25,890 bases of DNA from Patescibacteria group bacterium (GTDB lineage: Bacteria > Patescibacteriota > Gracilibacteria > BD1-5 > UBA2023). The stretch is from the NCBI GenBank assembly GCA_049301335.1, contig JBAQKV010000119.1, positions 1 to 25,890 of the forward strand, written 5' to 3'. Below, piece after piece: positions 1,423-19,383 of this stretch (the stretch's first letter is position 1; each line of letters starts with the position of its first letter). The translations under genes were made by a program, and so were the position numbers. The notes under the pieces were generated by a model. The model made no database searches. It was not told the origin of the DNA and saw only the letters and a list, made by a program, of their open reading frames with translations.

Positions 1423-4400
1423 TTATCCGCCGGAGGCTTTCTGACGGAGTATCGATTCTATTTTCGCTTTCAGGTATCCGATGGCCTTCTTTTGTCCGGC
1501 TTCGGGAGCCTTTTTCGCACGCGCTTCGAGGTATTTCTTCACCGGGTCGAAAAGACGTGCCATCTTCCTGGGATTTGACGAAGCTTTGACAATTATGTCA
1601 GATGCTACGGATTCGGCAAGCGCATCGAGCGCGGACTTGGTTTCCTGGGTTACGACGGCGTTCTTACCCTTGAGGGATTTGTCTTTGAGAACCGAAGAGA
1701 GGTTGCCGGCGCCCATGGAGGAATCCGTTGCGGAAGTCGGAACCGAAGGCTTCGTCACTACGGCGGGAACTTTGCCGGAGGTAGGATTGGAAACCGTGGA
1801 AGAAGTGGTTCCGGTAGAGGTTTTCGGAGCGGTTCCGCAGCTTCCGTCGTAGTAACTCTGCGAGTAATCACCCAACGGACAGGAGTCGCGGAGTTGCGCC
1901 GAACTTCCTCCTCCGCCGCCTCCGCCGGAGAAGGTTCCGGAAGAATTGCCGCCGGAAGAACCGCCCGAAGACGATCCGCCGCCGGAAGACGCGGCGGTCG
2001 AAGTGACGGAAACCGAGCAGGACCCGGAACCTCCGGCGCCGGCGACGTTCACGACGTAGCGGGTTACCGCGCTCGCCGAAGGAATGACCGAAAGCGAACC
2101 GGAAAGCCCGAGGGAAACGTTCCCCGGAACGAGCGTCGCCGAAGAGGCGTCGGAAGCCGTCCACGCGAGCGTGACGGAATTGCCGTCCGTAACGGAAGCG
2201 GGAGTCGCCGAAACGGTACAGGTGGGCACCGGCGGCGGAACCACGGAAACCGCGGCGAAATAGGAGAACTTGTCGGTGGCGAACGCGAGGCGTCCGGAAG
2301 CGTTGGAGAACGTGGTGGAGTTCGATTGGTCGACCCAATTGATGCCGTCTTCGCTCCTCAGGATGCGAAATTCGGAAGAAGGCGCCATATCCGAGAACGA
2401 GACCACGACGTTGCGGTCGAGTTCCATTCCCACGCCGAGGGTGTCCGCGCCGATTTTCACGATCTTGGCGACGTTCATCGAACGCAGCGACGTACTGCCC
2501 GAAGACGTGACGGCGCGGTCGGAGAGGAATCTCGAAGGATCGACGTTTTCCCCGAGGACGAACCCGCCGTTCCACGTGAGCGTGCCGGACGCGGTGAGCG
2601 CCACGACGTTGGTAGCTCCGGTTTGGGTAGTGAGGGTGATTCCTCCGGAAGAAGTCACGGAGAGTCCGGCTCCGGTGCCGGAATCGGCGATGAGGATGCC
2701 GCTTCCCGGGACGGAATAGCGGGAATTCACGGAAGTGGAATCGTAACGGCGGAGAACGCTGTCGCCCGTGAGCGAAACGGCGTTTACCGAAGTCGCGAGG
2801 ACTTCCGGAAGCCGTATGGTTCCGGAATACGCGGCTTGGGCGTATTGGCTTGAGAAAATGCGGGTGGCGAACGCGTAGTTGGACTTCTCGGCGTTCCAAT
2901 CGCGGGCGAACGTAAAGCTCTTGTCCGGCGTCTTCTGGTAGTAGTTGTCGACCGTCCACTGGTTGACCTGTTTGAGCGAGTCGGTACCGGTTCCGTACCA
3001 AGCCTGAAGATACGAGGATTTCGACGTATCGAAGTTCGTGCCTTCTCCGGCGAAGCGGAGGTCGACCCGCGCGTAGCCGTCGTTATTGGCCTTGTATTCG
3101 GGACGCATGAGCGCGAAGTGCGGCGGAGTTTCGTCCACGTCCTTCGCGAGGTCGGCGGTTTCGCCGAAGTAGTTCGTGTCGGAGAGGTTGTAGAGCGACT
3201 TGTAGATCTTTCCGTACACCGAACGGTAATCGATGCCGACGCCGAGCCAGTTGTCCTTGGAATTCTTGAACGAGAGGTTTCCGTAGGTTTTCTGCGGAAG
3301 GGCGTTCAAAAGGTTGGAGTTATTGGAAAGCACGAACATTCCGCCGCCTTCGCCGTGGTCGGTCCCGATATCGCCGTTGACGGCGACCGTTCGTCCGAAT
3401 TCGGAGAACACGACGATCGTCACGTCGTGGCGGGCTTTTACGCGGTTGAAGAAGTCGGTAAGGCGCGAAGCGACGTTCCCGATGTTGTAGTTGAGGTCTT
3501 TCGGAACGTTGTTCGGATCGAAATTCGAAGACGGAGCGAGCTGGTTAGAGTGGGTGTCGTACCCGCCGTCGGCCTGCATATAGAAGGTCTTCCCTACCCC
3601 GTTGTCGAGGAGGGTCTCCAAGAATTTGAGATTGTTGACGTTGCCCCATCACGCGCCGTCCGGCCCCCCGGAAGCTTTGGATTGGGTGGCGACCTGGTCA
3701 ATGCGGATGGCGCCCTGGAAGACGTCTCCGGCGGAATCCGGATACGTACGCCCTCCCGCGATGTCGCGGATGGCGTTCAACTGGGCGGTAGCTTCCGCCT
3801 GCGATACGTAGCCGTTGGAAAGGATCGCGCCGGACGGTCCGATGTTGGCATAACGGCCGGAACGGAAAACGTTCGGGCGGCGGTTGCCGAGCGAGATGGC
3901 GTCGGTGGAGCTCGCGGCGGTCTTGACGAGTTCGCCGATGACGCCGTCGGCGTCCGCGACGGTCGTATTACCGTACGAGGCGATCTGCTTGGCGGCGGCG
4001 TCGTGGTCGCGGGAATGGTTCTTCGTACCTACGCGGTTGAAAATGCGGAGGTTATCCGAGTCCCAGAGCGACTTGAACGAAGGCGAACCGCCGGAGCCGT
4101 AGGCGATGGCGTTATTCAAGTAGAAATCGCCGAGGTCGGTAAGACGTCCGGTATCGAGCGCGATACCGGAACCGGTAGCGAGCGTGCGCTTGCTGACGTA
4201 CTCGGAATACTCGTTTTTCGGAATGACGCCGTGGAGCCAGTCGTATCCGCCGCCGAGCTCTACGACGATGAGCTTGCCGGAAGCTCCGGAAATCGGCGAA
4301 TAGCTGCCGCCGGTCGATGCCGCGGGAAGGTCGTAGCCGGTCTGTATGACGTACTCGGGCTGCGCGAGGACCATCGCGATGGCCGAGCGGATTTTCTTGC

Positions 4401-6297
4401 GCTGGTAGGTCGCGTCGTACGGAAGGAACGCGACGGCGTTACCGGATTCGTCGGTCGTGAGGAAGGTTTCGATCTTGGCACGAACGTCGGAAGGAAGCTG
4501 GCGCCCGAGGAGGAGTTCGGCTTGGAGCTTGTCGATGAATTCCGACGGGCTCGCGAGCCGAGCGAGGTTGGATGCGGCGCTTACGGCGAAAGAACCTGAC
4601 GAAACCGCTACGGGAAGGGCGCCGGTTCCGGTCGGCTGGAGCGTTCCGGACGGTACGTCGAGAGTCAGGGCGAGCGGATCGTAGAGTCCGGAAGAAATGG
4701 AAATCTTGCCGTTCTGGGTCGTGATGGAGAATTCCGGAAGGTTCACGGTAGGCAAAGAGAACGCGAGCGTTTCGGTGGCTCACGAGTTCGTTACGGCCGG
4801 AGTGACGTCGGCGGTACCGGAAAGGAGGACGACCGAACCGGTGTACGAAGACCCGGAAGAAGTCGAAACGGACGTGGCGATCGAAATCGGGGTCGAAGCG
4901 GCGGGAAGGTAATCGGAAACCGAATACGAGCCGGTGGAAGTGGCGTACGCGATGCGGTTCGCGTAGGTGATCCACTGGTTCTGGAGATAGGTCGAGTACC
5001 ATTTGGCGTTGTCGTCGTACCCGTCGCGACCGAAAACGCTGCCCGGAGAATACGGGGTCCAGTTGAAACGCGAGAGAAGCGAAGTGTCCGAAAGCATCGG
5101 ATCGACCGCGGACGGATCCTTGTAATGAAGGAGTTTCGCGGTTCCTATGGTGAGTTCGACGGGATTCTTATACGCGAGAGCGTTCATCGAAGCGTCCGAA
5201 TACATAGCGTCGCTCGCGAGGAACGTCCGTACCGTGGGTAAGAGGTCGAAGCCGTTGGATTCGATGGTCGAAGCGAGCGCGTCGACGTCTTGGCGGCGCG
5301 GATTGTCGTGGGCGTAAAACCGAAAAATGCGGTTCGCGAGGAAAAGCGCAATCTGGTGCTGGCGCTTCGCGAAAACGTAATCGATGGCATTGTCGGCGAG
5401 ACCGTCGTTCGCGAAAAGCGGCGTTTCCATCGCGGAAAGGTCGAGGGTTCCCGAAGCGGAGTCATAAAACGGGAAATTCACCGAAGATGCCCCGGAAAGG
5501 AAGAGTACTCCGGTGGAAGTGTTATGATACGCCGAGTCGTAGCTGACGATGTGGGTCACGGAATCGGAACGGAAACCCGTGAGCACCTTGGCGAACGCCG
5601 CTACGTCGGATTCTTCGTAATTGCGGGCGTCGCCGGCTTCCTTGGTCTTGCCCGGTTCGTATTCGCCCATGAGGAAGAGCTGGAGCAGTTCGCGGGCGTA
5701 GTTCTCGTTGGGGTAACGCCTGTCGGACTGGTCGAGAAGGTCGAGGAATTTGCCCTCGGCGTAATCCCCCGTCCCCCCGTTGCCGAAAAGGACGCGCTTC
5801 ACCATCGACTTGTAGTTGCCGAGGGAATTCGCGTAGAGGAGGTCGCGCTGGTCTTGGACGTCCTTGTAGGTAATGGACGACCCGTTGGCGTTCACGGAGA
5901 AAATATCCTCGAAAAGGAGGGCGAACTTCGCCTTCGCCTCGTACGGGTCGCGGGCGAGCTTGTACTGGTAGTACTTGTACATGCTGCCGCCGTCGCCCCA
6001 GTTGAAACCGCTTCAGGTGAGGTTGGCCATTTCGGCATTGAACGCCGAACGGTCGGGGCCGACGTCGCTCGGGAACAGCAAAGCCACCGCGTTCGCGGCG
6101 GAGCCAGCGGAATAGAGCGAATCGACCATGGTCGGAGTCGCGGCGAAAAGGGTTTTCCGGGCGAGGTGCTCGGCTTTTTCGCGGGTCCAGTTGGCGGAAG
6201 TGCCGTCGGTGGTTACGGCGTACGCCGGAACGATCTGCACGCCGGGGAGGACGACGGCAAGGGCGACCGCGATCGAGCGGCGGATGAAGTTTCGCAT
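1423..6297 (-). CDS. secreted giant fusion protein (1624 aa): DUF1800-like + DUF1501-like (alkaline-phosphatase/sulfatase superfamily) + beta-rich/Ig-like/Gly-Ser-rich C-terminal extension; 3 UGA(Gly)
   Basis: Track ORFs 6013..6336, 4780..5982, 3649..4755 and 1423..3621 share one frame (all low ends = 1 mod 3). They are separated only by TGA at 6013-6015, 4780-4782 and 3649-3651. The bridging codons translate cleanly (SGFNWGDGGS; ATETLAFS; WGNVNNLKF). Signal peptide MRNFIRRSIAVALAVVLPGVQIVPAYA starts at ATG 6297 (alternative ATG 6336). The DUF1800-type body runs from ...NENYARELLQLFLMGEY... to its usual C-terminus ...IRSAIAMVLAQPEYVIQ, then continues without a stop into DUF1501-type motifs KLIVVELGGGYDWLHGVIP, ADGGYDTHSNQ and VVFSEFGRTVAVNGDIGTDHGEGGGMF. 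After that come ~500 aa of beta-rich sequence, an Ig-like module (PTCTVSATPASVTDGNSVTLAWTASDASSATL), a G/S linker, CPLGDYSQSYYDGSCG and a basic helical tail. True stop is TAA 1423-1425. Confidence 0.8.
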
Positions 6298-6329
6298 GGA
6301 GGTTTCCAAGTAACGGAAATACGCAAAAT

Positions 6330-6356
6330 CCGCCATTTTACGGCGGTGGGTTTTTT
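6330..6356. terminator. short GC hairpin (CCGCC-N7-GGCGG) flanked by A/T runs; likely terminator of the NicO-fusion gene, or a leader element of the giant gene
   Basis: Plus strand reads aaaatCCGCCattttacGGCGGtgggtttttt. On the minus strand the hairpin is followed by AUUUUGCGUAUUU. It lies between the TAG stop at 6439-6441 and the ATG at 6297. The stem is only 5 bp. Confidence 0.4.
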
Positions 6357-6408
6357 GGTATTGGTTTTCCGTACTCCGATGGCGTTTCCCGCCCGTTCTT
6401 ATACGAGA

Positions 6409-6436
6409 CTTATAGGCAATGAATTACGAATGTCAA
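6409..6436 (-). promoter_or_regulatory. sigma70-like promoter TTGACA-16-TATAAG reading toward the giant DUF1800-DUF1501 gene
   Basis: On the minus strand the -35 TTGACA is at 6436..6431 and the -10 TATAAG at 6414..6409, with a 16-nt spacer. The element starts 3 nt after the upstream gene's stop codon. Confidence 0.45.
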
Positions 6437-6438
6437 TA

Positions 6439-8046
6439 CTACCAGACGAGGAAAAGCGAATACGCGGTCACGGCCGTCATGGCCAAGGCCGAAAGCGCCG
6501 AAGACCTCCGGGCGAACGAAGGGGCGTATCCGAACGCTTTTTCCCGAAGGAAATACGTGACGCAGAGCACGAGGAAAAGGCAGGCGAAGATGCCGATTCC
6601 GAGCGCGGCCAAGAGCGGGAGCGCCCATCCGATCTTTCCTAAGGAAAAAAGTACGAGGAATATCCCCCACCCGAACGCACAGGGGGCGAGCCCGGCGAAG
6701 AAGCCGGCGAGGAGGTCTTTCCATCCGGGCATGGCGCGGAATTCGGCATCCGGAAGGACGACCGGGTTTTTCCAGTCGCGGTACGCCCTGAAACAAAGGT
6801 ACGCGGAAAGTCCTACGAGTCCGAAGCTCCCGAACCTTTGGACGAAGAGCATGTACGGCCCCGGATCGAACGCCTCGAAAACGTACTTGGTGAGAAGCAC
6901 GAGGATGGCGACGTCGGCCAGGTGCGTCACGGTGAAGACGAGAGCGAAAGCGAGCCCGGAAAAGAATCCGCGGCGACGGTCGAGAACCGATGCGGCGAGG
7001 AGCGTTTTGGCATGTCCCGGCCCCGCCGCGTGGACGAAGCCGAGCCCGACGGTCAAGGCGAACAACCCCCAGAAACCGGGCGCCGACGGGTCTTGTACGA
7101 ACTTGGTCACGCCCTTCAGCACCTTTCGGAAAAAATCCGCTCCGTAGACCGAAGAATCGAGAAGCGAGACCGGCGCCTGGAATCTCGCGGAATCGGACGT
7201 TTTTCAAGCCGTCTGAACTCCCGCTCCCGCGGTTTGGGACGAAGACGCGGCGCCCGTGTTCGCGCCCGCCAATCCGGAAGGCGCTCACGCTCCTCCGGGC
7301 AAAACCGCCGCCACCGGTTCTTCACGGTGTTTCTGTCCCGGCGACAAGGCCTTGGAAAGCGGGTTCCATCCCCACATGACCTCTTCGCCGTCGGTATAGA
7401 AATCGGCGTCGGTATCGGGGTTTTTCGCATCGGTCCGGTACGCGCGTTCTTCTTCGTCCGAAAGGCCGTCGTTATCGGAATCGAGTCCCTTCGCCGGAGC
7501 GCCGGAAGCCATGTCGAAGGAAAAATCGGGCAACACCGGGGTCAGCACCTTGTACGCCAAAGTCGAACCGTCGCGCCCCATGAGCGTGAGCCGGTTCGTC
7601 TGAAGCGGCAGTTCGTCGAATATCCGTACCGAGACGTCCAATTTCCTTACGCCGTCCCCACACGAAAAAGAATACGACACGGGGAAGCCTTCCGAGAATA
7701 TTTCGTCCACGGCCATCTCGCGGGTGGAAAATCCCCCGATTTCGCAGGGCTTGCCGTTATTGGAAACCTTCACGGTTTCGCGGAGGTAGTCGAAAACGAA
7801 ATCCTGCTTCGAATAGTAGTCGCCGAACGTGATCGAGCGCATGGGCACTCCCCTCTTTCCGAGGATCCGTTCGACTTCCGAGGGATGGACCGCGGTCGTC
7901 GCGGTCACCGAATTCCCCTCCGCGGTCATCGAAGTCGCCGAAACGTCGAGCGGATGGGCGAACGCCGGAGCGGCGGAAAACGCGAAAAACGCGGCGGCGA
8001 GAAAGCCGGTCGCGAAGCGGCGGAGCGACTTGGATTTCGATTCCAT
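6439..8046 (-). CDS. fusion (535 aa): signal peptide + secreted domain of unknown function + thrombospondin-type-3-like Asp-rich repeats + G/A/S linker + NicO/RcnA-family nickel/cobalt transporter membrane domain; 2 UGA(Gly)
   Basis: Track ORFs 7285..8127 and 6439..7122 are in the same frame. They are joined by 54 codons containing TGA at 7285-7287 and 7204-7206 and no TAA or TAG (linker GAPSGLAGANTGAASSSQTAGAGVQTA-G-KTSDSARFQ...). The likely start is MESKSKSLRRFATGFLAAAFFAFSAAPAFA (ATG 8046-8044). DSDNDGLSDEEE and NPDTDADFYTDGEE resemble DxDxDGxxDxxE calcium-binding repeats. The membrane part carries the NicO signature GFVHAAGPGHAKT plus about 6 hydrophobic segments. Stop is TAG 6439-6441. 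Confidence 0.7.
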
Positions 8047-8060
8047 GATGAACGGCTGGG

Positions 8061-9272
8061 TTATCCTCTCCAATCCCCTTCTTCGGTTTCGGCGCCCGGC
8101 TTGGGGAACGTTTCCGAGAATACGCACCCGCAGTAGTTCTGGCGGTAGATTCCGTGCGTTTTAGTATATTCGACGCTCCGGTCGAAACCGCCGTTCTTCC
8201 GAAACGCCTCCTTGAGAAAGACGAGGTTTTTCGAAAGGGCGTTCTTATCGCCCAAATCGAACATTTTCGAAAGGTCCTTGTGCGGCGAATTGTTGAGCGT
8301 CGAAGAGAAATGGCGGATGCCCATTTCGGCGGCGAGTTCGGCAGTACGACGCAGGCGCATGTCGTAGCATTTGGTGCATTTTTCGCCCTTTTCCGGCGTA
8401 TGTTCGAGGCCTTTGATTTCCGCCAGGAAATTCGCGACGTCGTATTCCCCTTCGACGAACGGCACCTCTTCGATTTCGCAGACCTTCTTGAACGCGTCCA
8501 GACGCTTGTCGTATTCGGCTTTCGGCTGGATGTTGGGATCGTACCAGAAACAGACGAGGTCGTATTCCTTCTTCAAATCCATAATGGGAACCGTGGCGTC
8601 CGGTCCGCAGCAGACGTGGAGCAGGAGCTTGGGCTTCTTCTCGAGCACCGCCTTGACCGGCGCGTACGAAGTGCGGTGCGCCCCCGTGACCGACGAAGGT
8701 CCGACGAGCGCGTCGGAGTGTTTTTTCGTGCCGTATCCCTTGTGCGAATCGAGACCGAGGTGCGGATAGAGAAGCGCGTACTGGTCGACGAGCTTGTCGC
8801 GGAACACCTTGGCGAGAATCGAAGCGCCGGAGATTTCGGGAACCTTGGCGTCGCCCTTAATGACGGACACCGCTTCCCTTCCGACCGTTTCGACGAACTG
8901 GTATTTGTCGTTGCCGTCGATGACCACGGCGTTGATTTCGAGCTCCTTCGGAATCTTGCGGACGATTTCCGCCAAGGCCCGGCGCATCGCTTCCTTATTG
9001 GCCTTCTTGATGCCGATTTCGTCGATGAGTTGACTGTCGCATATCCCCACTCAGAAAAAGACGTTGGGGTTCTCCGCCGAAGCGAGGGCCACGAGTTCGT
9101 GGAAAATCTTCTCGCGTGCCTTTTCCGTCAGTGCCTTACTGTCGGCGAGCGACGAAAAAAGTTCCCGGGGAATCGGGCGGTTGGGGTCGAACGCGAGCGC
9201 GGCGGCGGCGACGGGTCCGAACCACGGTCAGCGGCCGGCTTCGTCCACGCCGATTTTTACGTAGTTCCTCAT
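8061..9272 (-). CDS. rnhB: RNase HII fused to epoxyqueuosine reductase QueH (DUF208) in one 403-aa ORF; 2 UGA(Gly)
   Basis: ATG 9272-9270 gives MRNYVKIGVDEAGR[TGA]PWFGPVAAAALAFD...LADSKALTEKAREKIF...NVFF[TGA]VGICDSQLIDEIGI...VVIDGN...GASILAKVFRD...HKGYGTKKH...AHRTSYAPV, which carries the RNase HII D-E-D-D motifs. The frame then continues without a stop into PKLLLHVCCGPD...FWYDPNIQPKAEYDKR...EKGEKCTKCYDMRLRRTAELAAEMG...FSSTLNNSPHKD...IYRQNYCGCVFS, a QueH-type Cys pattern. TGAs are at 9228-9230 and 9051-9053. Stop is TAA 8061-8063. Confidence 0.85.
9228..9230 (-). other. in-frame UGA codon occupying the invariant Gly of the RNase HII DEAGRG motif
   Basis: This is codon 15 of the rnhB-queH ORF: GTG GAC GAA GCC GGC CGC TGA CCG = V D E A G R [UGA] P. 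Confidence 0.9.
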
Positions 9273-9391: not shown

Positions 9392-10006
9392 ATGAACGCA
9401 AAATCCCGTCTCGCCGTCTTGGCGGCCGCCACTTCCCTCCTGCTTTCTTCTTGCTGAAGCGAGGGATCGGAAGACCGCACGCCCGTTCCGGCTTCGGCGA
9501 TCCCCGCTTCCGGAATCCCCGTTTCCGCCGACGAAAAGGAATTCGTCCCCCGTACCTTTTCGTGAAACGCCATCGTCATGCCGGAGAGTTCCGGCGGCGT
9601 CACGGTAAGCGCCGAACTCAAGCCCACCGACGACGCGGCTTTGAACGGGTGCTCGGCGATTTCCAACCAGGGCGACCGCTACGCCTGCGAAGACGAAGTG
9701 CGTATCTGACGCGCTAACGAAAACGCCGATCCTTCGAGCTGCGAATTCGTCCACGACGAAAAAGCGAAAGCTCAGTGCGTAGTGGGCGCGAGCGTCCGCG
9801 AAGCGCAGAAAGAACACGATCCGAAGGTTTGCGAAGCCCTCACTGGGACCGGCGTGAAGGAATCGTGCCGCATATCGGCCATCATGGGCGATCCCATGAA
9901 AGTCCCCACCATCGCCGAGTGCGGAACCATTCCCGTTCCGGGCATCAAAACCGCTTGCATGGCCCGGGCGTCGGCGGGAACGAATCTTCCTTCGATAGCA
10001 AAATAG
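9392..10006 (+). CDS. Cys-rich lipoprotein (204 aa) with four C-x11-C units; 3 UGA(Gly)
   Basis: ATG 9392 gives MNAKSRLAVLAAATSLLLSSC, a signal peptide plus lipobox-like LSSC, followed directly by TGA (9455-9457). Further in-frame TGAs lie at 9563-9565 and 9707-9709. The frame joins track ORF 9782..10006. Stop is TAG. Confidence 0.65.
9650..9958 (+). repeat. protein-level tandem repeat: C-x11-C-x17 repeated three times plus a final C-x11-C (30-residue period)
   Basis: Counted from my own translation: C SAISNQGDRYA C EDEVRIGRANENADPSS C EFVHDEKAKAQ C VVGASVREAQKEHDPKV C EALTGTGVKES C RISAIMGDPMKVPTIAE C GTIPVPGIKTA C. The spacings are 11,17,11,17,11,17,11. Confidence 0.7.
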
Positions 10007-10026
10007 CGTTGCGCAAGAGCCGTTTA

Positions 10027-10055
10027 TTGGCGTTACGCCGACGAAATGGTATACT
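10027..10055 (+). promoter_or_regulatory. candidate extended -10 promoter (TTGGCG-17-TGgTATACT) for the three-gene small-protein operon
   Basis: TATACT at 10050..10055 is preceded by TG at 10047-10048. The -35 (TTGGCG, 10027..10032) is weak. Confidence 0.4.
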
Positions 10056-10082
10056 CGAACGGTATTCGTTCACTCACTTAGG

Positions 10083-10379
10083 ATGTCCTCCCCCGAAAAA
10101 AACGGCGCCTCGCCGGAGTCGCAAAATTCCACTCCGAAAAATCCGGTGGAAAGCACGAAGGACCGGCTCGACCAAATCGCCCTCAAGAATTCCGATCCCG
10201 CTTTCAAGAACGTGATCGACAGCCTCAAATGACGTCTGGACGCCCTTCCCGACTCGGAAAAGGAATCCGTTTCCAGGGAAATCGACCTCATCATGACCGA
10301 TGCGGAACGGAACAACCAGAAAGTCGGAGTGGACTTCTACCGAACCGTGGATCTCCTCCTTTCCGGCAGGTTCGGATAA
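10083..10379 (+). CDS. hypothetical small helical protein (98 aa); 1 UGA(Gly)
   Basis: ATG 10083 gives MSSPEKNGASPESQNSTPKNPVESTKDRLDQIALKNSDPAFKNVIDSLK[TGA 10230-10232]RLDALPDSEKESVSREIDLIMTDAERNNQKVGVDFYRTVDLLLSGRFG, with TAA at 10377-10379. It is invisible in the standard-code track. Confidence 0.5.
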
Positions 10380-10388
10380 GGCCCGACC

Positions 10389-10826
10389 ATGAACGCTTCC
10401 GGAAATTTCCAATTCGCGCTCTACCTGAGGGAATCGGGACTGAGCGAACAGGAACGCTACAACTTGGAGCGTATTTTTTCGGCGCTCCTTCCGGAACGGC
10501 AGGTGGAAATCATCGACAATTGGCCAAAATACCTCGACAAGCTCCTCGAAATCAAGCATTATGCCGACGAAGAGCGCAAGCGGAACATCGCCTCGGCGTT
10601 CGACCGCATCGACAAGCTCCTCTCCGATGCCGAACTGCGCGCGCAGGAGTCGGTAAGGAAGGCCGAAGAACGACTGAAAGAACTCCAAGAGAACCGCATG
10701 GGCGCGGAAGAATTCGACCGTTTGAAAAAACTCGACGCGATGAAAAACTTCTGAAGGCCGGCGGGAGTTCCGGCAGCCGTAGAAGAACCCAAGCCTGCGT
10801 ACGACCCCCTCGCCGACTTCATATAA
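10389..10826 (+). CDS. hypothetical coiled-coil protein (145 aa); 1 UGA(Gly)
   Basis: Track ORF 10389..10754 ends at TGA 10752-10754. Reading through adds RPAGVPAAVEEPKPAYDPLADFI before TAA 10824-10826. Confidence 0.55.
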
Positions 10827-10860
10827 GCGACAATACCAAAACAAAATACCGGAACCCGAA

Positions 10861-11091
10861 ATGAAAGAGATCGAACGCGACATTCCGAACTGGAAACGGT
10901 TCCGGCAAAAGTACCCGGAAGAATCCGCGTTCGCGGACCAATTCGAAACCCGGTACGCCAAAATGGCCCCCGGAGACGCGAAATCGAGGCTTGCGAAGCT
11001 CGTGAACGTCGAGCTTTGAATCGCCGTTCTGCGCGAAACGGAAATCGACCGGGAGAGCTTTTCGAAAATGCTCTCGGCCATAGCGAAATAA
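10861..11091 (+). CDS. hypothetical small protein (76 aa); 1 UGA(Gly)
   Basis: ATG 10861 gives MKEIERDIPNWKRFRQKYPEESAFADQFETRYAKMAPGDAKSRLAKLVNVEL[TGA 11017-11019]IAVLRETEIDRESFSKMLSAIAK, with TAA at 11089-11091. Confidence 0.5.
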
Positions 11092-11093
11092 AT

Positions 11094-11121
11094 TTGACTC
11101 CGTTTCGGCTTTCCATATAGT
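11094..11121 (+). promoter_or_regulatory. sigma70-like promoter TTGACT-16-TATAGT upstream of rplS
   Basis: -35 at 11094..11099, -10 at 11116..11121, about 62 nt upstream of the rplS ATG. Confidence 0.5.
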
Positions 11122-11183
11122 TAGCCGGTAATTTTTCCGGGTACGTCCACGTATCCGCCCTACTTTGTTACTCAAGTGAGACA

Positions 11184-11540
11184 ATGGCAAACGCAGCCCT
11201 CATTCGCGAAATCCAGGCCGAATTCATCAAGGCCGACGTTCCGCAGGTCCGCACCGGCATGGAAGTCGAAGTACACCAGATCATCAAGGAAGGCGAAAAG
11301 TCCCGCATCCAGAAGTTCCGCGGACTCGTCATCCGTACCAAGGGCGCTACCGCTCTCGAAAAGACCATCACCGTTCGTAAGGACGTAGACGGCATCGGAA
11401 TCGAAAAGATCTTCGCCATCCACTCCCCGGGTGTTTCCAAGATCGAAGTCCTCCGTTCTTTCAAGGTTCGCCGCAAGTACATCTCCTTCATCCGCAACCT
11501 CCGCGGCAAGGCAGCTCGTCTCAAGGAAATCAAGGCGTAA
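11184..11540 (+). CDS. rplS: 50S ribosomal protein L19 (bL19)
   Basis: 118 aa. MANAALIREIQAEFIKADVPQVRTGMEVEVHQIIKEGEKSRIQKFRGLVIRTKG...ITVRKDVDGIGIEKIFAIHSPGVSKIEVLR is a typical L19 sequence. TAA stop, no UGA. Confidence 0.97.
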   Translation: MANAALIREIQAEFIKADVPQVRTGMEVEVHQIIKEGEKSRIQKFRGLVIRTKGATALEKTITVRKDVDGIGIEKIFAIHSPGVSKIEVLRSFKVRRKYISFIRNLRGKAARLKEIKA

Positions 11541-11566
11541 ATTCATTGTCAAAAACTCAACGAAAA

Positions 11567-11592
11567 CCCCTCGGGCAACCGGGGGGTTTTTT
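11567..11592 (+). terminator. intrinsic terminator after rplS
   Basis: aaaaCCCCTCGGgcaaCCGGGGGGtttttt: an 8-bp stem (one G-U pair) followed by a T6 run. Confidence 0.7.
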
Positions 11593-11699
11593 ACGCTTTC
11601 CAGTGGGTAAAACCCCGGTATCCGCGCCCCCTTGCCAACCCCCTCGGAATTGCGTACAAAAAATGTATACGTTTTTGGACGTCAAGGCGTTTTTTTCTT

Positions 11700-11727
11700 T
11701 TGACTCCCGGTCGCGGACGGGTAAATA
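11700..11727 (+). promoter_or_regulatory. candidate dnaA promoter TTGACT-16-TAAATA
   Basis: -35 at 11700..11705, -10 at 11722..11727, about 60 nt upstream of ATG 11789. Confidence 0.4.
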
Positions 11728-11788
11728 TGTCTCGTCTTCCGGGGGTGAAAAACTTCCCGGATCTTCTCTCACCGGATTAGGAAATCGA

Positions 11789-13216
11789 ATGACTCACCAA
11801 AGCGTAGAAATTCTCAGAAAGATCGTGCAAGCGGTCGCCGGTAACGTAAAGAAACAGGATTTCCTTACGTACTTCAAGAAGCTGTCCCTCCTTTCGAACG
11901 AAGGGGGCGAACTCGTTTTCGGCGTCGTATCCAGTTTCGCTCGCGACAACCTCGCGCACAAGTTCAAGAAGGAAATCGAAACCGCCGTCGCTACCGTCCT
12001 CCCCGAAGTCCTTTCCATCGACTTCGTCGTCGACTCCGACATCGACAACCCGTCGAACGCGGCGGTCGTGGACTGCCTCAAAGAATACAAAGAACTCACT
12101 TCCACCAAGAAGAAGGACGACGAAGCCGCCATAGCGAAGGAAGAAGAGGAAATGGGCGGCATCAACGTCCGCATGATGAACGACAAGTACCGCTTGGAGA
12201 ACTTCATCGTCGGGCCGTCCAACCAGCTCGCCTATGCCGCGTCCGACGCCGTTTCCCGACGTCCGGGTTCCGCGTACAACCCGCTCTACATCTACGGCGA
12301 CGTAGGTCTCGGAAAAACCCACCTCCTCCAGGGTATCGGAAACACCATCAAGGCGCGCTTCAAAGACAAGAAGGTCATCTACACCACCGCCGACCGCTTC
12401 CTTACGGACTACGTCAACAGCATCAAGAAGCGCACCGTCGACAAGATGCGCGAGAAATACCGCAACATCGACGTCCTCGTCATCGACGACGTCCAGTTCC
12501 TCGCGAAGAAAGAGCGCACCCAGGAAGAGCTCTACAACATCTTCAACCTGATGCACGAATCCGGCCGACAGATCGTCCTCTCCGGAGACCGTCCGCCGAA
12601 AGAGCTCACCGAAATCGAGCCGCGCCTCAAGTCGCGTTTCGAATGGGGAATCATCGTCGACGTCGGAGCGCCGGATTTCGAAACCCGTCTCGCCATCCTC
12701 CAAGAGAAAGCCCGCGCCCGCGAGTTCATCCTCCCGCAGGAAGTCGCCGAATTCATCGCGTACAACGCCAATTCGAACGTCCGCGAAATCGAAGGCATCC
12801 TCAACCAGATCATCGCCGAGTACGAACTCCACGGCAAGCCGCCGACGCTCGAAAACGTTTCGGCACGCTTCCAGAAGCTCGGAGTCACCAACGACGCGCT
12901 CGGCAACCGCGCGCAACAGCGCCGCGTAGCCCGCAGTTACGACGAACTCCTCGACGCGGTATCGACCCACTTCGGCATCGAAAAGAAGATGCTCATCGGC
13001 GACGACCGCCGCAAGGAAAACATGATTCCGCGCCAGGTGGCCATGTACCTCCTGAAGAACAAGATGCACTTCACTTACGAACGCATCGGCAACATCTTCT
13101 CGGGCCGCAACCATTCCGCCATCCTCTACTCGTGCCGCAAGCTCGAAGCCGTCCTCAAGAAAGACCAGAACCTCTACTACGAGGTGAACGTCATCCGCGA
13201 CAAGCTCGGTCTCTAA
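11789..13216 (+). CDS. dnaA: chromosomal replication initiator protein DnaA (475 aa)
   Basis: Walker A GDVGLGKTHLL, Walker B VLVIDDVQFL, RFEWG, and the C-terminal DNA-binding helix region IPRQVAMYLLK...ERIGNIFSGRNHSAILYSCRKLE. I place the start at MTHQSVEILRKI (ATG 11789). The track start at 11546 would run through the rplS terminator and the promoter. TAA stop, no UGA. Confidence 0.96.
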   Translation: MTHQSVEILRKIVQAVAGNVKKQDFLTYFKKLSLLSNEGGELVFGVVSSFARDNLAHKFKKEIETAVATVLPEVLSIDFVVDSDIDNPSNAAVVDCLKEYKELTSTKKKDDEAAIAKEEEEMGGINVRMMNDKYRLENFIVGPSNQLAYAASDAVSRRPGSAYNPLYIYGDVGLGKTHLLQGIGNTIKARFKDKKVIYTTADRFLTDYVNSIKKRTVDKMREKYRNIDVLVIDDVQFLAKKERTQEELYNIFNLMHESGRQIVLSGDRPPKELTEIEPRLKSRFEWGIIVDVGAPDFETRLAILQEKARAREFILPQEVAEFIAYNANSNVREIEGILNQIIAEYELHGKPPTLENVSARFQKLGVTNDALGNRAQQRRVARSYDELLDAVSTHFGIEKKMLIGDDRRKENMIPRQVAMYLLKNKMHFTYERIGNIFSGRNHSAILYSCRKLEAVLKKDQNLYYEVNVIRDKLGL

Positions 13217-13228
13217 ACTTCCGCACGT

Positions 13229-13600
13229 ATGGACATCCGCCCTTCCAATTCCGAAATCGCCCGCTTCCTTCTCAAGTTCGAGAAGGACGGCATTTCGAAA
13301 AAATCGGCCGACCTCATGGCCAAAGAAGACATGCCGTACTCATCGGACCCGGACAACCGGGTCCTTTTGGAATGGTGCGTCGATAACGGGTTCGTTACCT
13401 TCGAAATCCGCAGCAAGCGTTTCGGGGACTACGAAATATCCAACCAGGGCCGACTCTTCCTCATGCAGCAGCGCTCAAACTCGCGCCGGTTGAAATATTG
13501 GATTGAAGACCATCCGTTCGCTTGGTCGGTCGTCATGCTCGTCTCCGGCTGGCTCGGCGGCGTCGTTTCGAAGTTCGCCGACAAGTTCCTTCCGTTCTAA
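13229..13600 (+). CDS. hypothetical protein (123 aa) with C-terminal transmembrane helix
   Basis: Intact ORF beginning 13 nt after dnaA, with a hydrophobic C-terminus (PFAWSVVMLVSGWLGGVV) and a TAA stop. No family recognised. Confidence 0.55.
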   Translation: MDIRPSNSEIARFLLKFEKDGISKKSADLMAKEDMPYSSDPDNRVLLEWCVDNGFVTFEIRSKRFGDYEISNQGRLFLMQQRSNSRRLKYWIEDHPFAWSVVMLVSGWLGGVVSKFADKFLPF

Positions 13601-13612
13601 GCCAATCTCTCC

Positions 13613-14128
13613 ATGAACGAAGTCGAAGGAAAAATCCTGAACATCGACGCGGAGGCGGAAATCGCCAAACTCCTCGCTCTCGGATACGCGCAGAAGGGCG
13701 ATGAAACGCTCGTAGCGAAGTTCTATAAGAATTCGTGATGAGAGACCCTCCGGCTCCGGAGCGAACACGGAGGATGGGTTTTAAACCATAAGAGAAGGAA
13801 TCCCGATTCCGGTTCGCGATTCAAATCCATGACCGAGACCGAAACGTTCGTGTCCGATCCGGACAAGATGGAAACCATCGTCCTCTCCATCGGTTTCGAA
13901 AAGGTTCGCACCGTCAGCAAACGCCGAAGGTCGTTCGTTCTCGAAGGTTCCGAAGGAAAGATCGAGATCGACGAATATCCCGGCATCCCTCCCCTGCTCG
14001 AAATCGAAGCCGAAAGCCCAGAAGCGGTGGAACGGATCGCGGAATCGCTCGGGTTCGAAGCGTCAGCGCTCGTGTCGGATTCGGTAAAAGACCTCGAAAA
14101 ACGCTACGGCATCCAATTTGGCAAATAA
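13613..14128 (+). CDS. CYTH-domain protein (class IV adenylate cyclase / triphosphatase-like), 171 aa; tandem UGA-UGA (Gly-Gly)
   Basis: ATG 13613 gives MNEVEGKILNIDAE, which contains the ExExK CYTH signature, then ...LVAKFYKNS[TGA][TGA]ETLRLRSEHGGWVLNHK.... This is in frame with track ORF 13829..14128 (...KVRTVSKRRRSFVLEGSEGKIEIDEYPGIPPLLEIEAES...). TAA stop. Confidence 0.8.
13736..13741 (+). other. two consecutive in-frame UGA codons inside the CYTH gene
   Basis: TCG TGA TGA GAG at 13733-13744, 41 codons after the ATG. CYTH-like sequence continues on both sides. Confidence 0.85.
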
Positions 14129-14150
14129 CCCGGGCGAACCGCCCAAACGA

Positions 14151-14804
14151 ATGCTCTACCTCGTCTCGACCCCCATCGGCAACCTCGAAGACATGACGTA
14201 CCGCGGCGTACGCATCCTGAAAGAAGCCGACTTCATCGCCTGCGAAGACACCCGGACCTCGGGAGTCCTCACCAAGCACTACGGCATCGACCGTCCGATG
14301 CTGTCTTTCCACTCGCACTCCGGCGTCGCGAAGATCGACAAGATCCTCGAAGCCCTCAAAGAAGGCAAAACCTGCGCGCTCATCTCCGACGCGGGAACTC
14401 CCGGCATTTCCGATCCGGCGTACGCCCTCGTGAAGGCCGCCATCGCGGAAGGAATCCCCGTCTGCCCCATCCCCGGAGCGTCCGCCGTGCTTTCCGCGCT
14501 GGTATGTTCCGGAGCGCACACGCACGATTTCCGTTTCCTCGGGTTCATGCCCATCAAGAAGGGGCGCAAGACGCTCTTCGAATCGCTCAAGACCAAGGAT
14601 TATACCGTCGTCGTCTACGAAAGCGTCCACCGCATAGACAAGACCGTCTCGGAAATCGCGGAACACTTCGGACCCGACCATCAGATCGTCATCGCCCGCG
14701 AGCTCACGAAGAAGTTCGAGGAGTTCATCCGCGGAACCGCTGCCGAGTGCGTCGAAGAGCTGAAAGTCCGTCCGAGAAAGGGCGAATTCGTCGTAATATT
14801 CTAA
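14151..14804 (+). CDS. rsmI: 16S rRNA (cytidine1402-2'-O)-methyltransferase RsmI
   Basis: MLYLVSTPIGNLEDMTYRGVRILKEADFIACEDTRTSGVLTKHYGI...ALISDAGTPGISDPAY...GASAVLSAL...VVVYESVHRIDKT...IARELTKKFEE. The ATG at 14151 is preferred over the track's TTG at 14118, which overlaps the CYTH stop. TAA stop. Confidence 0.9.
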   Translation: MLYLVSTPIGNLEDMTYRGVRILKEADFIACEDTRTSGVLTKHYGIDRPMLSFHSHSGVAKIDKILEALKEGKTCALISDAGTPGISDPAYALVKAAIAEGIPVCPIPGASAVLSALVCSGAHTHDFRFLGFMPIKKGRKTLFESLKTKDYTVVVYESVHRIDKTVSEIAEHFGPDHQIVIARELTKKFEEFIRGTAAECVEELKVRPRKGEFVVIF

Positions 14805-14818
14805 TCGCGACTCCAAAA

Positions 14819-14850
14819 CCCCGCCCCATTTGCATTGGAGCGGGGTTTTA
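14819..14850 (+). terminator. intrinsic terminator after rsmI
   Basis: aaaaCCCCGCcccatttgcattggaGCGGGGtttta: a GC stem followed by a T run. Confidence 0.55.
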
Positions 14851-14884
14851 TGATATGATTGCCCCATACCCCTAAATCCGATCC

Positions 14885-15683: not shown

Positions 15684-16835
15684 TTAGCCCGCCATCGCCT
15701 CGGAGAGGTTCATGATCGGCTGCATGATGCCGACCGCGATGAAACCGACGACGACCGCCATGACGACGATGATGACCGGTTCGATGGTCTTGTTGATGGC
15801 GTTTACGGTGGTATCGACTTCGGCGTCGTAGAAGTCCGCGATCTTGAGGATGATGGAGTCGAGGCGGGCGGTTTCTTCGCCGACCTTGATCATCTGGACG
15901 AGCATGTCCGGGAAGAGGGCGTCGTCTTCGAGGCCTTCGCCGATCTTCACTCATTTCTTGATGTCTTCGCGCAGGAGCATGATGCGCTGGCGGTAGACTT
16001 CATGGTCGACGACTTCCGAGACGATGCGCAGCGATTCGACGATCGAGATACCGGAAGAGAGGAGGTTTGAGAGTACGCGGGAGAACTTGGAGAGCACGAC
16101 CTTTTTCATGATCGGTCCGACGATCGGGAAGTGGAGCATGATGAGGTCGAAGCGGAAGTGTCCTTCCGGGGTGTTCTTCCACATCTTGACCGCGACCACG
16201 AGGATACCGATGACGATGCCCATGAGCCACCAGTAGTTCACGAACACGTCGCTGACGTTCATGAGGAACTTGGTGAGCGGCGGGAGCTTTTCCTTATCGC
16301 CGAACATCGCCACGAGCTTGGGAACGACGAGCGTCATGAGGACGCCGATACAAAGGAACATGACGATGACGATGCCCGCCGGGTAGATGAGCGCGCCTTT
16401 GAGCTTGTTGGAAATGTCGGAAACCTTTTCGACCTGGTCGGCGAGCTGGACGAGGGCGTTGTTGAGGCGTCCCGTCTTTTCGCCGGATTCGATGATCGAG
16501 CATTCCGCGTCGGAGAAGTTGCCGTCGAAGTCGCGGAGCGTTGCGGAAAGGTTCTTACCGGATTTGATTCCGGCGATCATCTTGCCGAAGAACGCCTTGG
16601 AAACCGGGTCCTTCTCCTGCCGTTCGAGGATTCCCAAAGATTTGAGAATCGGGAGGCCGGCGTTGGCCATGGTCGCGAGGAGGCGGAAGAAGACGACCTT
16701 CTGCTTGATGTTCATCTTCTGCCTCGTGAGCATCCAGAGCTCGATCTTTTGGAGAAGGCCGAGCGATTCGGAATCCGAATTGCCCTCGCCCTTGATGTCC
16801 TGGATGATGATTTCCTGATTGGAAGTCGCGTTCAT
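15684..16835 (-). CDS. pilC: type IV pilus / T2SS platform protein PilC (GspF family), 383 aa; 1 UGA(Gly)
   Basis: Track ORFs 15951..16835 and 15684..15950 are contiguous in frame across TGA 15951-15953: ...RIMLLREDIKK[TGA]VKIGEGLEDDALFPDMLVQMIKVGEETARLDSIIL.... The first GspF repeat has the matching ...MIAGIKSGKNLSATLRDFDGNFSDAECSIIESGEKTGRLNNAL. Three TM segments are present. TAA stop. Confidence 0.9.
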
Positions 16836-16849
16836 ATCGTTTTGGGGAA

Positions 16850-18112
16850 TTAGCTTTCTTTCGCCGCGGCGTAGACTTCGTCGAGGGAAGTGAGACCGTT
16901 GAGGGCCTTCATGATGCCGTCCTGTTCGAGGGAAATCATGCCCGCGTCGATGGCGGTTTCGTTAATCAGCACGCCGGAAGCCCCTTCGAGGATGAGCTTT
17001 TTGATCTCCGGGCCGATTTCCATGATTTCGTAGATACCGACGCGGCCGGAGTATCCGCTGTTTCCGCACTGGTCGCAACCGACCGGTTCGTAGAATACGG
17101 GATTCTGGAGGATTTCCATCGAAACTCGGGAAGTGAGTTCCGTTTTGTTCGTACGGGAGATGGCCTTCTTTACGGAAGCCTGCATGCGCGGTTCGAGCTT
17201 GTCGGCGGCGATGGCCTTGCGGCAGTGCGGACAAAGGCGGCGGATGAGGCGCTGCGCGATGATCGCGTTCATCGACGCCGGGAGGAGGAACGCCGGTATC
17301 CCCATGTTGAGGATACGGGTGATCGTTTCGGCGGCGGAGTTCGTATGGATGGTCGAGAGTACCAAATGTCCCGTGAGGGACGCTTCGATCGCGATGTTGA
17401 TGGTTTCACGGTCGCGGATTTCACCGACCATGATGATGTCCGGATCCTGACGGAGCGCGGTACGGAGACCGGAAGCGAAGTTGTATCCGATATCCGGGAA
17501 CATCTGGCTCTGGTTGACGCCGTCGATGACGTTTTCTACCGGGTCTTCGAGCGTCATGATGTTGACGTCCGGCTTGTTGAGGCGGGTAAGGCACGAGTAG
17601 AGCGTGGTCGACTTACCGGAACCGGTCGGTCCGGAAGTGAGGATGATGCCGTTCGGGAGCGCGATGGCGCGCTTGAGGATTTCGCCGTTCTGCCCTTCGA
17701 TACCGAGAACGCTCAAATCCGGGATCTTCTTCGATTTGTCGACGATACGCATTACGATCTTCTCGCCGGAAACGGTGGGGAGCGTCGAGACGCGGAGGTC
17801 GAGCGGCTTTTCGTCGATGGTAACGGAGATGCGCCCGTCCTGCGGCATGCGGGATTCGTCGATCTTGAGGTTCGCGAGGATCTTGTAGCGCGCTACGACC
17901 TGCGGATGGAGGAACTGCTGGTATTCGAGGATTTCTTCCAATACGCCGTCCACGCGATAGCGGATGCGGACGTAATTGGAGAGCGGTTCGATATGGATGT
18001 CAGAAGAGCGTACCGAAACCGCGGCGCTGATAATCAGGTTACAGATCTGCTGGGCGTTGTCGCCCTTGTAGATCTCCTCTTTCAGGCGTTCGATGTAGGA
18101 GTTCGTTTGCAT
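16850..18112 (-). CDS. pilB: type IV pilus assembly ATPase PilB (GspE family, short form without N-terminal domain), 420 aa
   Basis: Walker A GPTGSGKST, Asp box and Walker B ...LRQDPDIIMVGEIRD, His box LTGHLVLSTIHTN, and a tetracysteine motif CPHC...CDQC. TAA stop, no UGA. Confidence 0.9.
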   Translation of the reverse strand: MQTNSYIERLKEEIYKGDNAQQICNLIISAAVSVRSSDIHIEPLSNYVRIRYRVDGVLEEILEYQQFLHPQVVARYKILANLKIDESRMPQDGRISVTIDEKPLDLRVSTLPTVSGEKIVMRIVDKSKKIPDLSVLGIEGQNGEILKRAIALPNGIILTSGPTGSGKSTTLYSCLTRLNKPDVNIMTLEDPVENVIDGVNQSQMFPDIGYNFASGLRTALRQDPDIIMVGEIRDRETINIAIEASLTGHLVLSTIHTNSAAETITRILNMGIPAFLLPASMNAIIAQRLIRRLCPHCRKAIAADKLEPRMQASVKKAISRTNKTELTSRVSMEILQNPVFYEPVGCDQCGNSGYSGRVGIYEIMEIGPEIKKLILEGASGVLINETAIDAGMISLEQDGIMKALNGLTSLDEVYAAAKES

Positions 18113-18130
18113 GTCGTGATGATGACGGGC

Positions 18131-19381: not shown

Positions 19382-19383
19382 GA

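Follow-up and report, generated by a model that had tools for sequence, protein, structure and literature searches.

A single-chain DUF1800–DUF1501 protein of a Gracilibacteria-type bacterium as a candidate surface-held metalloenzyme

Genes for DUF1800 and DUF1501 are closely paired across many phyla of bacteria (at least 567 related loci, one genome being taken per species). The pair has been noted as a conserved operon in which the DUF1501 member bears a twin-arginine translocation (Tat) signal (PMC5122149), and DUF1501 modules with PSCyt in Planctomycetes and Verrucomicrobia have also been discussed (PMC3542564); in the literature we found no reported function for either family. On the reverse strand of a 25,890-nt stretch of DNA from a Patescibacteria group bacterium (contig JBAQKV010000119.1, positions 1 to 25,890, hereafter the window), both families occur in one long open reading frame (ORF), at positions 1423–6297. 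Is this frame a genuine gene, and if so, what would a single chain made of the two partners do? We find that the fusion is real and not an artefact of assembly or sequencing. As to its role, we consider it probable, with appreciable room for doubt, that this is a conserved gene of a Gracilibacteria-type bacterium that uses UGA as a glycine codon, and that its product is a single-chain DUF1800/DUF1501 module, exported by the Sec pathway and held at the cell surface as a metalloenzyme.

What was known is the gene pair as an operon; what is new is its fused single-chain form. We found no paper describing a DUF1800–DUF1501 fusion, and DUF1800 and DUF1501 are unmentioned in a Gracilibacteria metaproteome paper and its supplements. 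Public databases already contain fused proteins, which carry automatically assigned names (e.g., "DUF1800 family protein").

Reading frame and genetic code

Direct translation of the reverse strand yields a single ORF from ATG to TAA, with 1624 sense codons followed by the stop. The initial annotation had described one frame with three UGA codons and neither TAA nor TAG, and this is what the translation gives: the three internal stops are all TGA. The elements of the frame are listed below.

1423–6297, reverse strand: complete coding sequence of the fused DUF1800–DUF1501 putative surface protein, 1624 residues (translation, Pfam, third-position GC content, full-length orthologue in locus L081)
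1423–1425, reverse strand: TAA stop codon of the fused gene (translation)
6013–6015, reverse strand: in-frame TGA, codon 95, read as Gly (GGC in the L081 orthologue)
4780–4782, reverse strand: in-frame TGA, codon 506, read as Gly (GGC in the L081 orthologue)
3649–3651, reverse strand: in-frame TGA, codon 883, read as Gly (GGA in the L081 orthologue)

Base composition predicts about 30 TAA or TAG codons in 1625 codons, while none is observed (P about 1e-13). In the two alternative frames of this strand, 17 and 10 such codons occur. The GC content at third codon positions (GC3) remains between 0.72 and 0.81 in the phase of the fused gene over positions 2400–7200, unbroken at all three TGAs.

The meaning of UGA was assessed by comparison with L081, the nearest relative of the whole locus (56% GC, identical gene order), whose fused gene is 83% identical and carries TGA at two sites where the window has GGC and GGA. 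Since all three TGAs of the fused gene align to GGC, GGC and GGA in L081, the alignment identifies UGA as glycine, i.e., genetic code 25 (table 25). The exchange is not confined to the fused gene: over seven gene pairs of the window and L081, TGA faces GGN in 9 of the 13 aligned codon pairs that involve TGA, and this bears out the code-25 reading adopted initially. The canonical DEAGRGP motif of RNase HII is encoded in the window as DEAGR-TGA-P, and the other credible genes also hold in-frame TGAs and terminate at TAA or TAG throughout. No tRNA genes or Rfam elements were detected in the window, and thus a suppressor tRNA-Gly(UCA) is not seen in it.

A search of 5.8 billion proteins returned homologues in 62 clusters, all of 1063–2266 residues and all relatives of the whole protein, the closest being 83% identical. 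Those bearing a name belong to Candidatus Gracilibacteria, Absconditabacterales and Altimarinota. The Pfam families PF08811 (DUF1800) and PF07394 (DUF1501) are found together in about two thirds of the clusters, and PF08811 only in the rest. At the column of codon 883, these translations have G in 16 cases and W in 34; the column is usually Gly across the family, the W entries being UGA read with code 4. In addition, eight independent contigs each contain one frame free of TAA and TAG, 1497–2065 codons long, with 2–104 TGAs that make up 1–87% of the glycine codons.

These data bear directly on the possibility that the frame is an artefact or a pseudo-fusion, in which a frameshift, a misassembly or termination at UGA would yield separate DUF1800 and DUF1501 products or fragments of them. 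The standard code does split the frame into four pieces, and public gene callers stop the L081 orthologue at a TGA, giving 1453 residues instead of 1619. Against this, TGA corresponds to GGN in the orthologue at three of three sites, other genes of the window likewise need TGA as a sense codon and end in TAA or TAG, and the GC3 periodicity is unbroken. Moreover, there is no TGA at the domain junction, and an unbroken frame joins Q652 to K675 both here and in the 62 relatives from independent assemblies. We therefore regard an artefact as extremely improbable, a sequencing error being excluded because the fusion recurs in the 62 clusters and in independently assembled contigs.

Public gene calls within the family are often wrong. 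The L081 orthologue (P0001, positions 10001–14860) is called with 1453 residues where the TAA-terminated frame has 1619, and P0006 together with many of P0003–P0061 are translated with Trp for UGA (e.g., WWRSWAWYNM for GGRSGAGYNM); such miscalls and Trp translations weaken Pfam matches and automatic names. As for base composition, the window has 52–62% GC as compared to 22–39% in relatives with the same gene (L001, L002, and L083–L088), and TGA accounts for 2% of the glycine codons of the fused gene in the window as compared to 20–87% in those relatives. The window thus comes from a code-25 lineage of high GC content that has come to use UGA for Gly only rarely.

Two domains in one chain

The N-terminal two thirds of the protein comprise the following elements.

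6217–6297, reverse strand: Sec-type signal peptide, residues 1–27, MRNFIRRSIAVALAVVLPGVQIVPAYA, followed by VTTDG (sequence reading, N-termini of homologues)
4336–6216, reverse strand: DUF1800 domain, residues 28–654, helical (Pfam, 87-sequence alignment, model of a relative)
4543–4935, reverse strand: all-beta, Ser/Thr-rich, family-specific insertion in DUF1800, residues about 455–585, holding TGA codon 506 (occupancy, model of a relative)
4276–4335, reverse strand: junction, residues 655–674, in place of stop, spacer and Tat leader, with the invariant Gly654 just upstream (alignments)
3073–4275, reverse strand: DUF1501 domain, residues 675–1075, with a predicted alkaline-phosphatase-superfamily fold (Pfam, 69-sequence alignment, Foldseek on the model of a relative)

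The signal peptide proposed initially is confirmed as a Sec-type leader on reading the sequence, and all homologues begin with a hydrophobic leader followed by the conserved T(N/D)G..PWT.EKA.HLA. With Gly placed at the TGAs, the DUF1800 profile matches residues 44–650 with 139.5 bits (cutoff 26.1, E = 2.3e-40) over profile positions 1–418 of 419, and the match runs across two of the three TGAs. In an alignment of 87 sequences, fused and stand-alone together, H44, P196-N-E-N-Y-x-R-E203, D231, and G423 are each shared by 90% or more. The domain ends here with AQPEYVIQ (Q652), which aligns with the ends of stand-alone proteins (PE[FY]QLx followed by the stop). Between Q652 and K675, the start of the DUF1501 core, lie 22 residues (653–674), among which no RRxFL or RR motif is found; the Tat leader, typical of DUF1501 but not domain-defining, is missing from the fused protein. 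The usual C-terminus of DUF1800 is thus followed, as claimed at the outset, by the beginning of DUF1501 with neither a stop nor a Tat leader, the gap being of 22 residues.

The Pfam match to DUF1501 exceeds its cutoff of 27 bits (32.3 bits with the whole protein, 36.3 with the domain alone), although its coverage is weak, from residue 910 to 988 and profile positions 251–321 of 390. In an alignment of 12 fused proteins with 57 stand-alone DUF1501 proteins from other phyla, 31 columns spanning G683 to Y1028 are conserved at 90% or more, and therefore the alignment indicates that the domain is complete despite the short Pfam match. D686, R704, H765, D914-T-H916, E966-F-G-R969, D980-H981, D1023, and R1025 are invariant, and the family signature (GG.D, H, DTH..Q, SEFGR, GTDHG, D.R) is present in the fused protein. 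Both domains are therefore recovered by profile searches, DUF1800 in full length and DUF1501 above its cutoff, with its extent given by alignment. The Ser/Thr-rich insertion containing a UGA, also part of the initial annotation, was found at residues 455–585 approximately. It is mostly missing from stand-alone DUF1800 (occupancy 0–0.45 in 75 sequences, against 0.62–0.88 in fused proteins), and in the model of a relative described below (model residues 364–474) it consists of beta strands with high confidence.

How the two domains occur elsewhere was surveyed by a pattern scan in which each species was represented by a single genome; it confirmed at least 567 related loci, and the best 80 were examined. 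The three best loci (L001–L003) come from Gracilibacteria or unclassified Patescibacteria; L001 and L002 are fused, and L003 ends at a contig edge. The other 77 belong to Bacteroidota, Planctomycetota, Chloroflexota, Eremiobacterota, Verrucomicrobiota, Acidobacteriota, and others. Both parts are present in 57 of them, and in 57 out of 57 DUF1800 precedes DUF1501 as a separate gene, either in a different frame or separated by a stop. Outside the code-25 lineage, no fused form occurs among these best 80 loci. The separate adjacent genes expected from the initial annotation are thereby confirmed, in a constant order, and the survey of split and fused versions that it had called for places the fused form in the code-25 lineage (62 clusters) and the split form in the 57 other loci.

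The two-gene loci have a median spacer of 14 nt, and 53 of the 57 DUF1501 proteins start with a Tat-type leader (RRx[FLIVM]). As for the stand-alone DUF1800 proteins (n = 72), in 41 the conserved start lies too near the N-terminus to leave space for a signal peptide, 13 more have no hydrophobic N-terminus, 16 contain an RR-type motif, and 2 are Sec-like. In other Tat complexes, subunits devoid of a signal are exported folded together with their partner. Since most copies of DUF1800 carry no signal peptide, any action outside the cytoplasm would require the protein to leave as a folded complex with DUF1501. Genes that share an operon are, in general, often found fused. The sequences favour considering stand-alone DUF1800 as a co-exported subunit of the Tat-bearing DUF1501 rather than as a cytoplasmic helper, because the fused DUF1800 directly follows the sole signal peptide, still has the invariant polar residues of its family, and travels with a DUF1501 from which the Tat leader is gone. 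The alternative would be that DUF1800 of the two-gene form is a cytoplasmic maturation or Tat-proofreading factor and that the fusion is an evolutionary accident with no functional bearing. About three quarters of the stand-alone DUF1800 proteins lack an export signal, as expected of a cytoplasmic chaperone. However, the one signal peptide of the fused protein precedes DUF1800 and serves to export it along with a Tat-less DUF1501, its polar cluster is kept in a family that has no Tat leader to proofread, and both domains are modelled as one rigid body in the relative; we judge this alternative improbable.

Preferring the co-exported subunit, we note what the fusion adds to the operon: DUF1800 and DUF1501 almost certainly act as one physical unit, and the fused form fixes the topology of DUF1800, which works outside the cytoplasm. 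The Rosetta-stone argument advanced from the fusion at first is thus strengthened by the single-body model of the relative and by the occurrence of signal-less DUF1800 beside Tat-bearing DUF1501.

The fusion could also have been born of the code change itself, if DUF1800 once ended in a UGA in frame with the DUF1501 gene behind it, UGA was reassigned to Gly, read-through joined DUF1501, and the spacer and Tat leader were trimmed later. Compatible with this origin is the finding that fused forms occur only in the code-25 lineage, given the 62 clusters and the best 80 of at least 567 loci. Compatible too is G654, an invariant Gly right past the canonical end of DUF1800 that is often encoded by UGA in relatives. 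Among stand-alone DUF1800 genes, 17 of 67 end in TGA. On the other hand, G654 lies one codon beyond the stop position of stand-alone genes, UGA is used at G654 (0.80) no more than at the remaining conserved Gly columns, which set the background, and the 22-residue linker is far shorter than spacer plus leader. We give such an origin little credence. In six of the TGA-ending loci, all from standard-code genomes (L032, L035, L063, L065, L075, and L076), DUF1501 continues in the frame of DUF1800 and the TGA is the sole stop between them; UGA reassignment alone would fuse the two genes.

Predicted fold, C-terminal stalk and neighbouring genes

The structure of the core was modelled on relative P0006, which is 54% identical and covers residues 106–1070 of the query (pLDDT 88, pTM 0.86, the predicted local distance difference and template modelling scores, respectively). 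The DUF1800 part of this proxy is helical, and DUF1800 and DUF1501 are predicted to fold as one rigid body. A Foldseek search with the proxy gave as best match the phosphoethanolamine transferase EptC (6a82, E = 7e-5, probability 1.0, TM score normalised to the target 0.45), followed by MCR-1, LtaS, alkaline phosphatase, and sulfatases (E from 7e-5 to 1e-2); the fold matches of the core in the PDB are only enzymes of the alkaline-phosphatase superfamily. Searching the family profile against PDB sequences gave nothing meaningful, with no detectable similarity to any solved structure. The residues D686, H765, D914/H916, and D980/H981 form a pattern Asp...Asp-x-His...Asp-His that, at the level of sequence, resembles the metal ligands of the superfamily. 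Fold and residues together suggest that the protein is probably a metal-dependent phospho- or sulfo-esterase or transferase.

Beyond DUF1501, the chain continues for about 550 residues (1076–1624), with these features:

1996–3072, reverse strand: three beta-sandwich, immunoglobulin (Ig)-like domains, residues about 1057–1166, 1176–1351, and 1356–1434 (AlphaFold2 with pLDDT >90, Foldseek)
1834–1911, reverse strand: end of the Gly/Ser-rich linker and the Cys motif R-D1471-x-C1473-P-x-G-D1477-x-S-x-S-Y-Y-D1484-x-x-C1487-G (conservation among 38 members)
1426–1710, reverse strand: C-terminal basic helical bundle, residues about 1530–1623 (helices of the AlphaFold2 model)

This part was modelled on the window protein itself (residues 1057–1624, AlphaFold2, pLDDT 84). 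Three beta-sandwich domains, the first two of which are conserved in the family by occupancy, are followed by the Cys motif, which lies between two disordered segments (Gly/Ser before it, Thr/Ser/Pro after it), and then by the helical bundle (model residues 474–481, 495–516, 520–540, and 544–567, pLDDT 72–86). Foldseek relates the stalk to Dscam Ig1-4, the BIg domains of SiiE, and an ice-binding adhesin. Model and Foldseek thus uphold the beta modules, Ig-like domain, Gly/Ser linker, Cys motif and helical tail of the initial annotation; its estimate of about 700 residues was too long, the extension measuring about 550.

Across 38 members of the family, the Cys motif shows no variation at D, C, D, S, S, Y, Y, D, and C, and follows the pattern G-rich...[KR]DxCPxGDxSxSYYDxxC. 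An exhaustive hidden Markov model search of 1.84 billion cluster representatives found the motif in at least 505 clusters at E ≤ 0.001; a word-index search with a 40-residue profile of the motif gave no matches. The carriers range from 34 to 2857 residues, with the motif mostly 100–300 residues before the C-terminus. Those sampled have unrelated ectodomains (LRR, cadherin, PKD, or Big), and SLH or SH3b on the C-terminal side of the motif, which as a rule directly precedes an SLH, SH3b, or helical tail; some of the carriers P0063–P0207 are small proteins with 3–5 tandem copies. Neither Pfam nor NCBIfam matches anything within residues 1057–1624, the Cys motif included. The module may be an undescribed stalk, anchor, or sorting element of code-25 surface proteins. 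Together with the Gly-rich stretch, it seems to be widespread among the surface proteins of these uncultivated bacteria, as a feature not described so far. At the position of the bundle, the tails of family relatives are helical, SH3b-type, or SLH; SLH and SH3b are given there by precomputed Pfam assignments and, at some loci, by faint matches. Because relatives and other carriers of the Cys motif hold SLH or SH3b, surface display, as suggested by the initial annotation, is by analogy a reasonable proposal.

The gene next to the fused gene may bear on its function:

6439–8046, reverse strand: NicO/RcnA-type gene with a signal peptide, mature N-terminus HPLDVS, TSP3 repeat, a domain of six transmembrane segments (HAAGPGHAKT), and two in-frame TGAs (Pfam)

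Its product matches TSP3_bac, a bacterial Ca-binding repeat (2.7e-6), and the RcnA-type PRK10019 (2.5e-6). The NicO match of the window copy is weak, with 19.5 bits, under the Pfam cutoff; NicO is matched in four of four distant orthologues, twice above the cutoff (34.6 and 32.1 bits). A NicO-type gene adjoins the fused gene in five lineages and in either gene order: it lies upstream in the group of the window and L081 (L082) and in L083 and L087 (with gaps of 10 and 11 nt, respectively), and downstream in L002 and L085. An adjacency kept despite changed gene order suggests a functional link, and a link to a NicO-type transporter points to a metal-dependent enzyme. Around the two-gene form, no third conserved partner was seen: among 89 ORFs flanking about 50 of these loci there is no common family, and the most frequent one accounts for 5 of 89.

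The same evidence serves to weigh two further readings. In the first, the protein would be a non-catalytic adhesin or binding protein, with the core acting as a ligand-binding head on an Ig-like stalk for attachment to host cells. Stalk, linker and tail are indeed adhesin-like, the same tail module accompanies ectodomains of binding type (LRR, cadherin, and PKD), and the Ser of the stand-alone motif NRSHF is not kept in the fused family. Furthermore, the Absconditabacteria in culture live as predators, and Gracilibacteria are presumed to depend on hosts (PMC11452946). Yet all invariant Asp and His residues of stand-alone DUF1501 are kept, where a pseudo-enzyme would be expected to lose some, and a metal-transporter gene is a conserved neighbour; we regard the adhesin as unlikely. 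The second reading assumes a metalloenzyme of other chemistry, e.g., redox or electron transfer, in place of an esterase or transferase of the alkaline-phosphatase type. A published link of DUF1501 with cytochrome-like PSCyt proteins and Tat export suggests electron transport (PMC3542564), and the NicO family handles Ni and Co, unusual metals for sites of the alkaline-phosphatase type. This possibility is, in our estimate, quite unlikely, since neither a CxxCH haem motif nor a cytochrome domain is present in DUF1800 or the fused protein, and the fold matches are all phospho- or sulfo-transfer enzymes.

Several other genes of the window, all on the reverse strand, deserve mention. A PAS-domain sensor gene (2–1411) starts 11 nt past the stop of the fused gene, contains an in-frame TGA, and is separated from it by no terminator-like site; its orthologue in L081 extends into a GGDEF domain. 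Positions 8061–9272 encode RNase HII and the epoxyqueuosine reductase QueH in one ORF of 403 residues with two in-frame TGAs (Pfam 9e-30 and 1.5e-59), another joining of normally separate genes that is likewise found in L081. At 15684–20270, GspF/PilC-like and GspE/PilB-like genes are followed by two unannotated membrane or secreted proteins, an arrangement suggestive of a gene cluster for a type IV pilus or for type II secretion. Finally, positions 24451–25890 encode a second protein of the alkaline-phosphatase superfamily (Pfam Sulfatase, LtaS-like, three TGAs), whose gene passes the right end of the window.

Proposed mode of action and known systems

Taken as a surface-held metalloenzyme, the protein could work as follows. 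The N-terminal Sec signal, as read from the sequence, would export the entire chain. The helical DUF1800 and the alkaline-phosphatase-fold DUF1501 are predicted, from the model of the 54% identical relative, to pack as one rigid body. Judging from fold and invariant residues, DUF1501 would carry the catalytic metal site (D686, H765, D914/H916, and D980/H981), with Ser762 as a possible nucleophile (in stand-alone forms, perhaps the Ser of NRSHF), and would cleave or transfer a phospho- or sulfo-ester group. DUF1800, with its PNENYxRE/D231/H44 cluster and beta insertion, may be an obligate structural or substrate-binding partner, as fusion and export signals suggest, and would shape or cover the metal site of DUF1501. 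By analogy, the three Ig-like domains, the Gly/Ser linker, the disulfide-capable Cys motif and the basic helical bundle would hold the enzyme at the surface, Ig-like domains and flexible linker spacing the core from the wall. Lastly, if adjacency is a guide, the NicO-type transporter may deliver or handle the metal of the enzyme outside the cell, replacing the cytoplasmic metal loading implied by Tat export of the two-gene form.

Some observations weigh against this proposal. The structure of the core was predicted for relative P0006 rather than for the window protein, and its Foldseek matches are weak (target-normalised TM 0.45–0.5, E about 1e-4). The proposed chemistry is a reading of fold and residues. 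The Ser beside the invariant His, present in stand-alone DUF1501 as NRSHF, is replaced by HSR[D/G]HD in the fused family, and the nucleophile is therefore uncertain. No anchor of its own (SLH, SH3b, LPXTG, or transmembrane segment) was recognised in the window protein, so that surface display draws on relatives and motif carriers. The NicO-type gene is absent from the flanks of L001, L084, L086, and L088, four of nine independent loci, and a weak terminator-like hairpin (6330–6346) lies in the 141-nt gap between the NicO-type and fused genes; this hairpin, upstream of the fused gene, was the sole result of a promoter and terminator scan, which gave nothing downstream of the gene.

With three TGAs, as compared to 35–104 in low-GC relatives, the window copy needs the least recoding of the family for expression in one piece, and offers a tractable single-chain target for structural and activity work.

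Among known systems, the alkaline-phosphatase superfamily (the phosphoethanolamine transferases EptC and MCR-1, LtaS, alkaline phosphatase, and sulfatases) appears to share with DUF1501 the same alpha/beta core fold, and the Asp...Asp-x-His...Asp-His of DUF1501 is like their metal ligands. Unlike in sulfatases and EptC, the CxPxR motif and the context of the EptC Thr nucleophile are not recognisable in DUF1501, and the enzymes of the superfamily work without an obligate helical partner comparable to DUF1800. The DUF1501-PSCyt/PSD modules (PMC3542564) likewise combine DUF1501 with a second extracytoplasmic partner, neither with a reported function; here, the partner is DUF1800 and not the cytochrome-like PSCyt/PSD, and there is no CxxCH motif.

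Gram-positive-type surface proteins anchored by SLH or SH3b have the same layout of ectodomain, Ig-like stalk, flexible linker, and C-terminal attachment region, and both family members and other Cys-motif carriers end in SLH or SH3b. The window protein differs from them in ending with a basic helical bundle with no Pfam match, and for its DxCPxGDxSxSYYDxxC module a counterpart is described neither in Pfam nor in NCBIfam.

The closest known system remains the two-gene module of Bacteroidota, Planctomycetota, Chloroflexota, Eremiobacterota, Verrucomicrobiota, Proteobacteria, and others, with the same domains in the same order. It shares with the fused protein PNENYxRE and D231 in DUF1800, and D686, H765, DTH, EFGR, and DH in DUF1501, while the Ser of the stand-alone NRSHF is lost in the fused family. 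In comparison with this module, the fused protein is one polypeptide with a single Sec signal, has a 22-residue linker for the stop, spacer and Tat leader, and adds a beta insertion of about 130 residues in DUF1800 and about 550 residues of stalk and tail.

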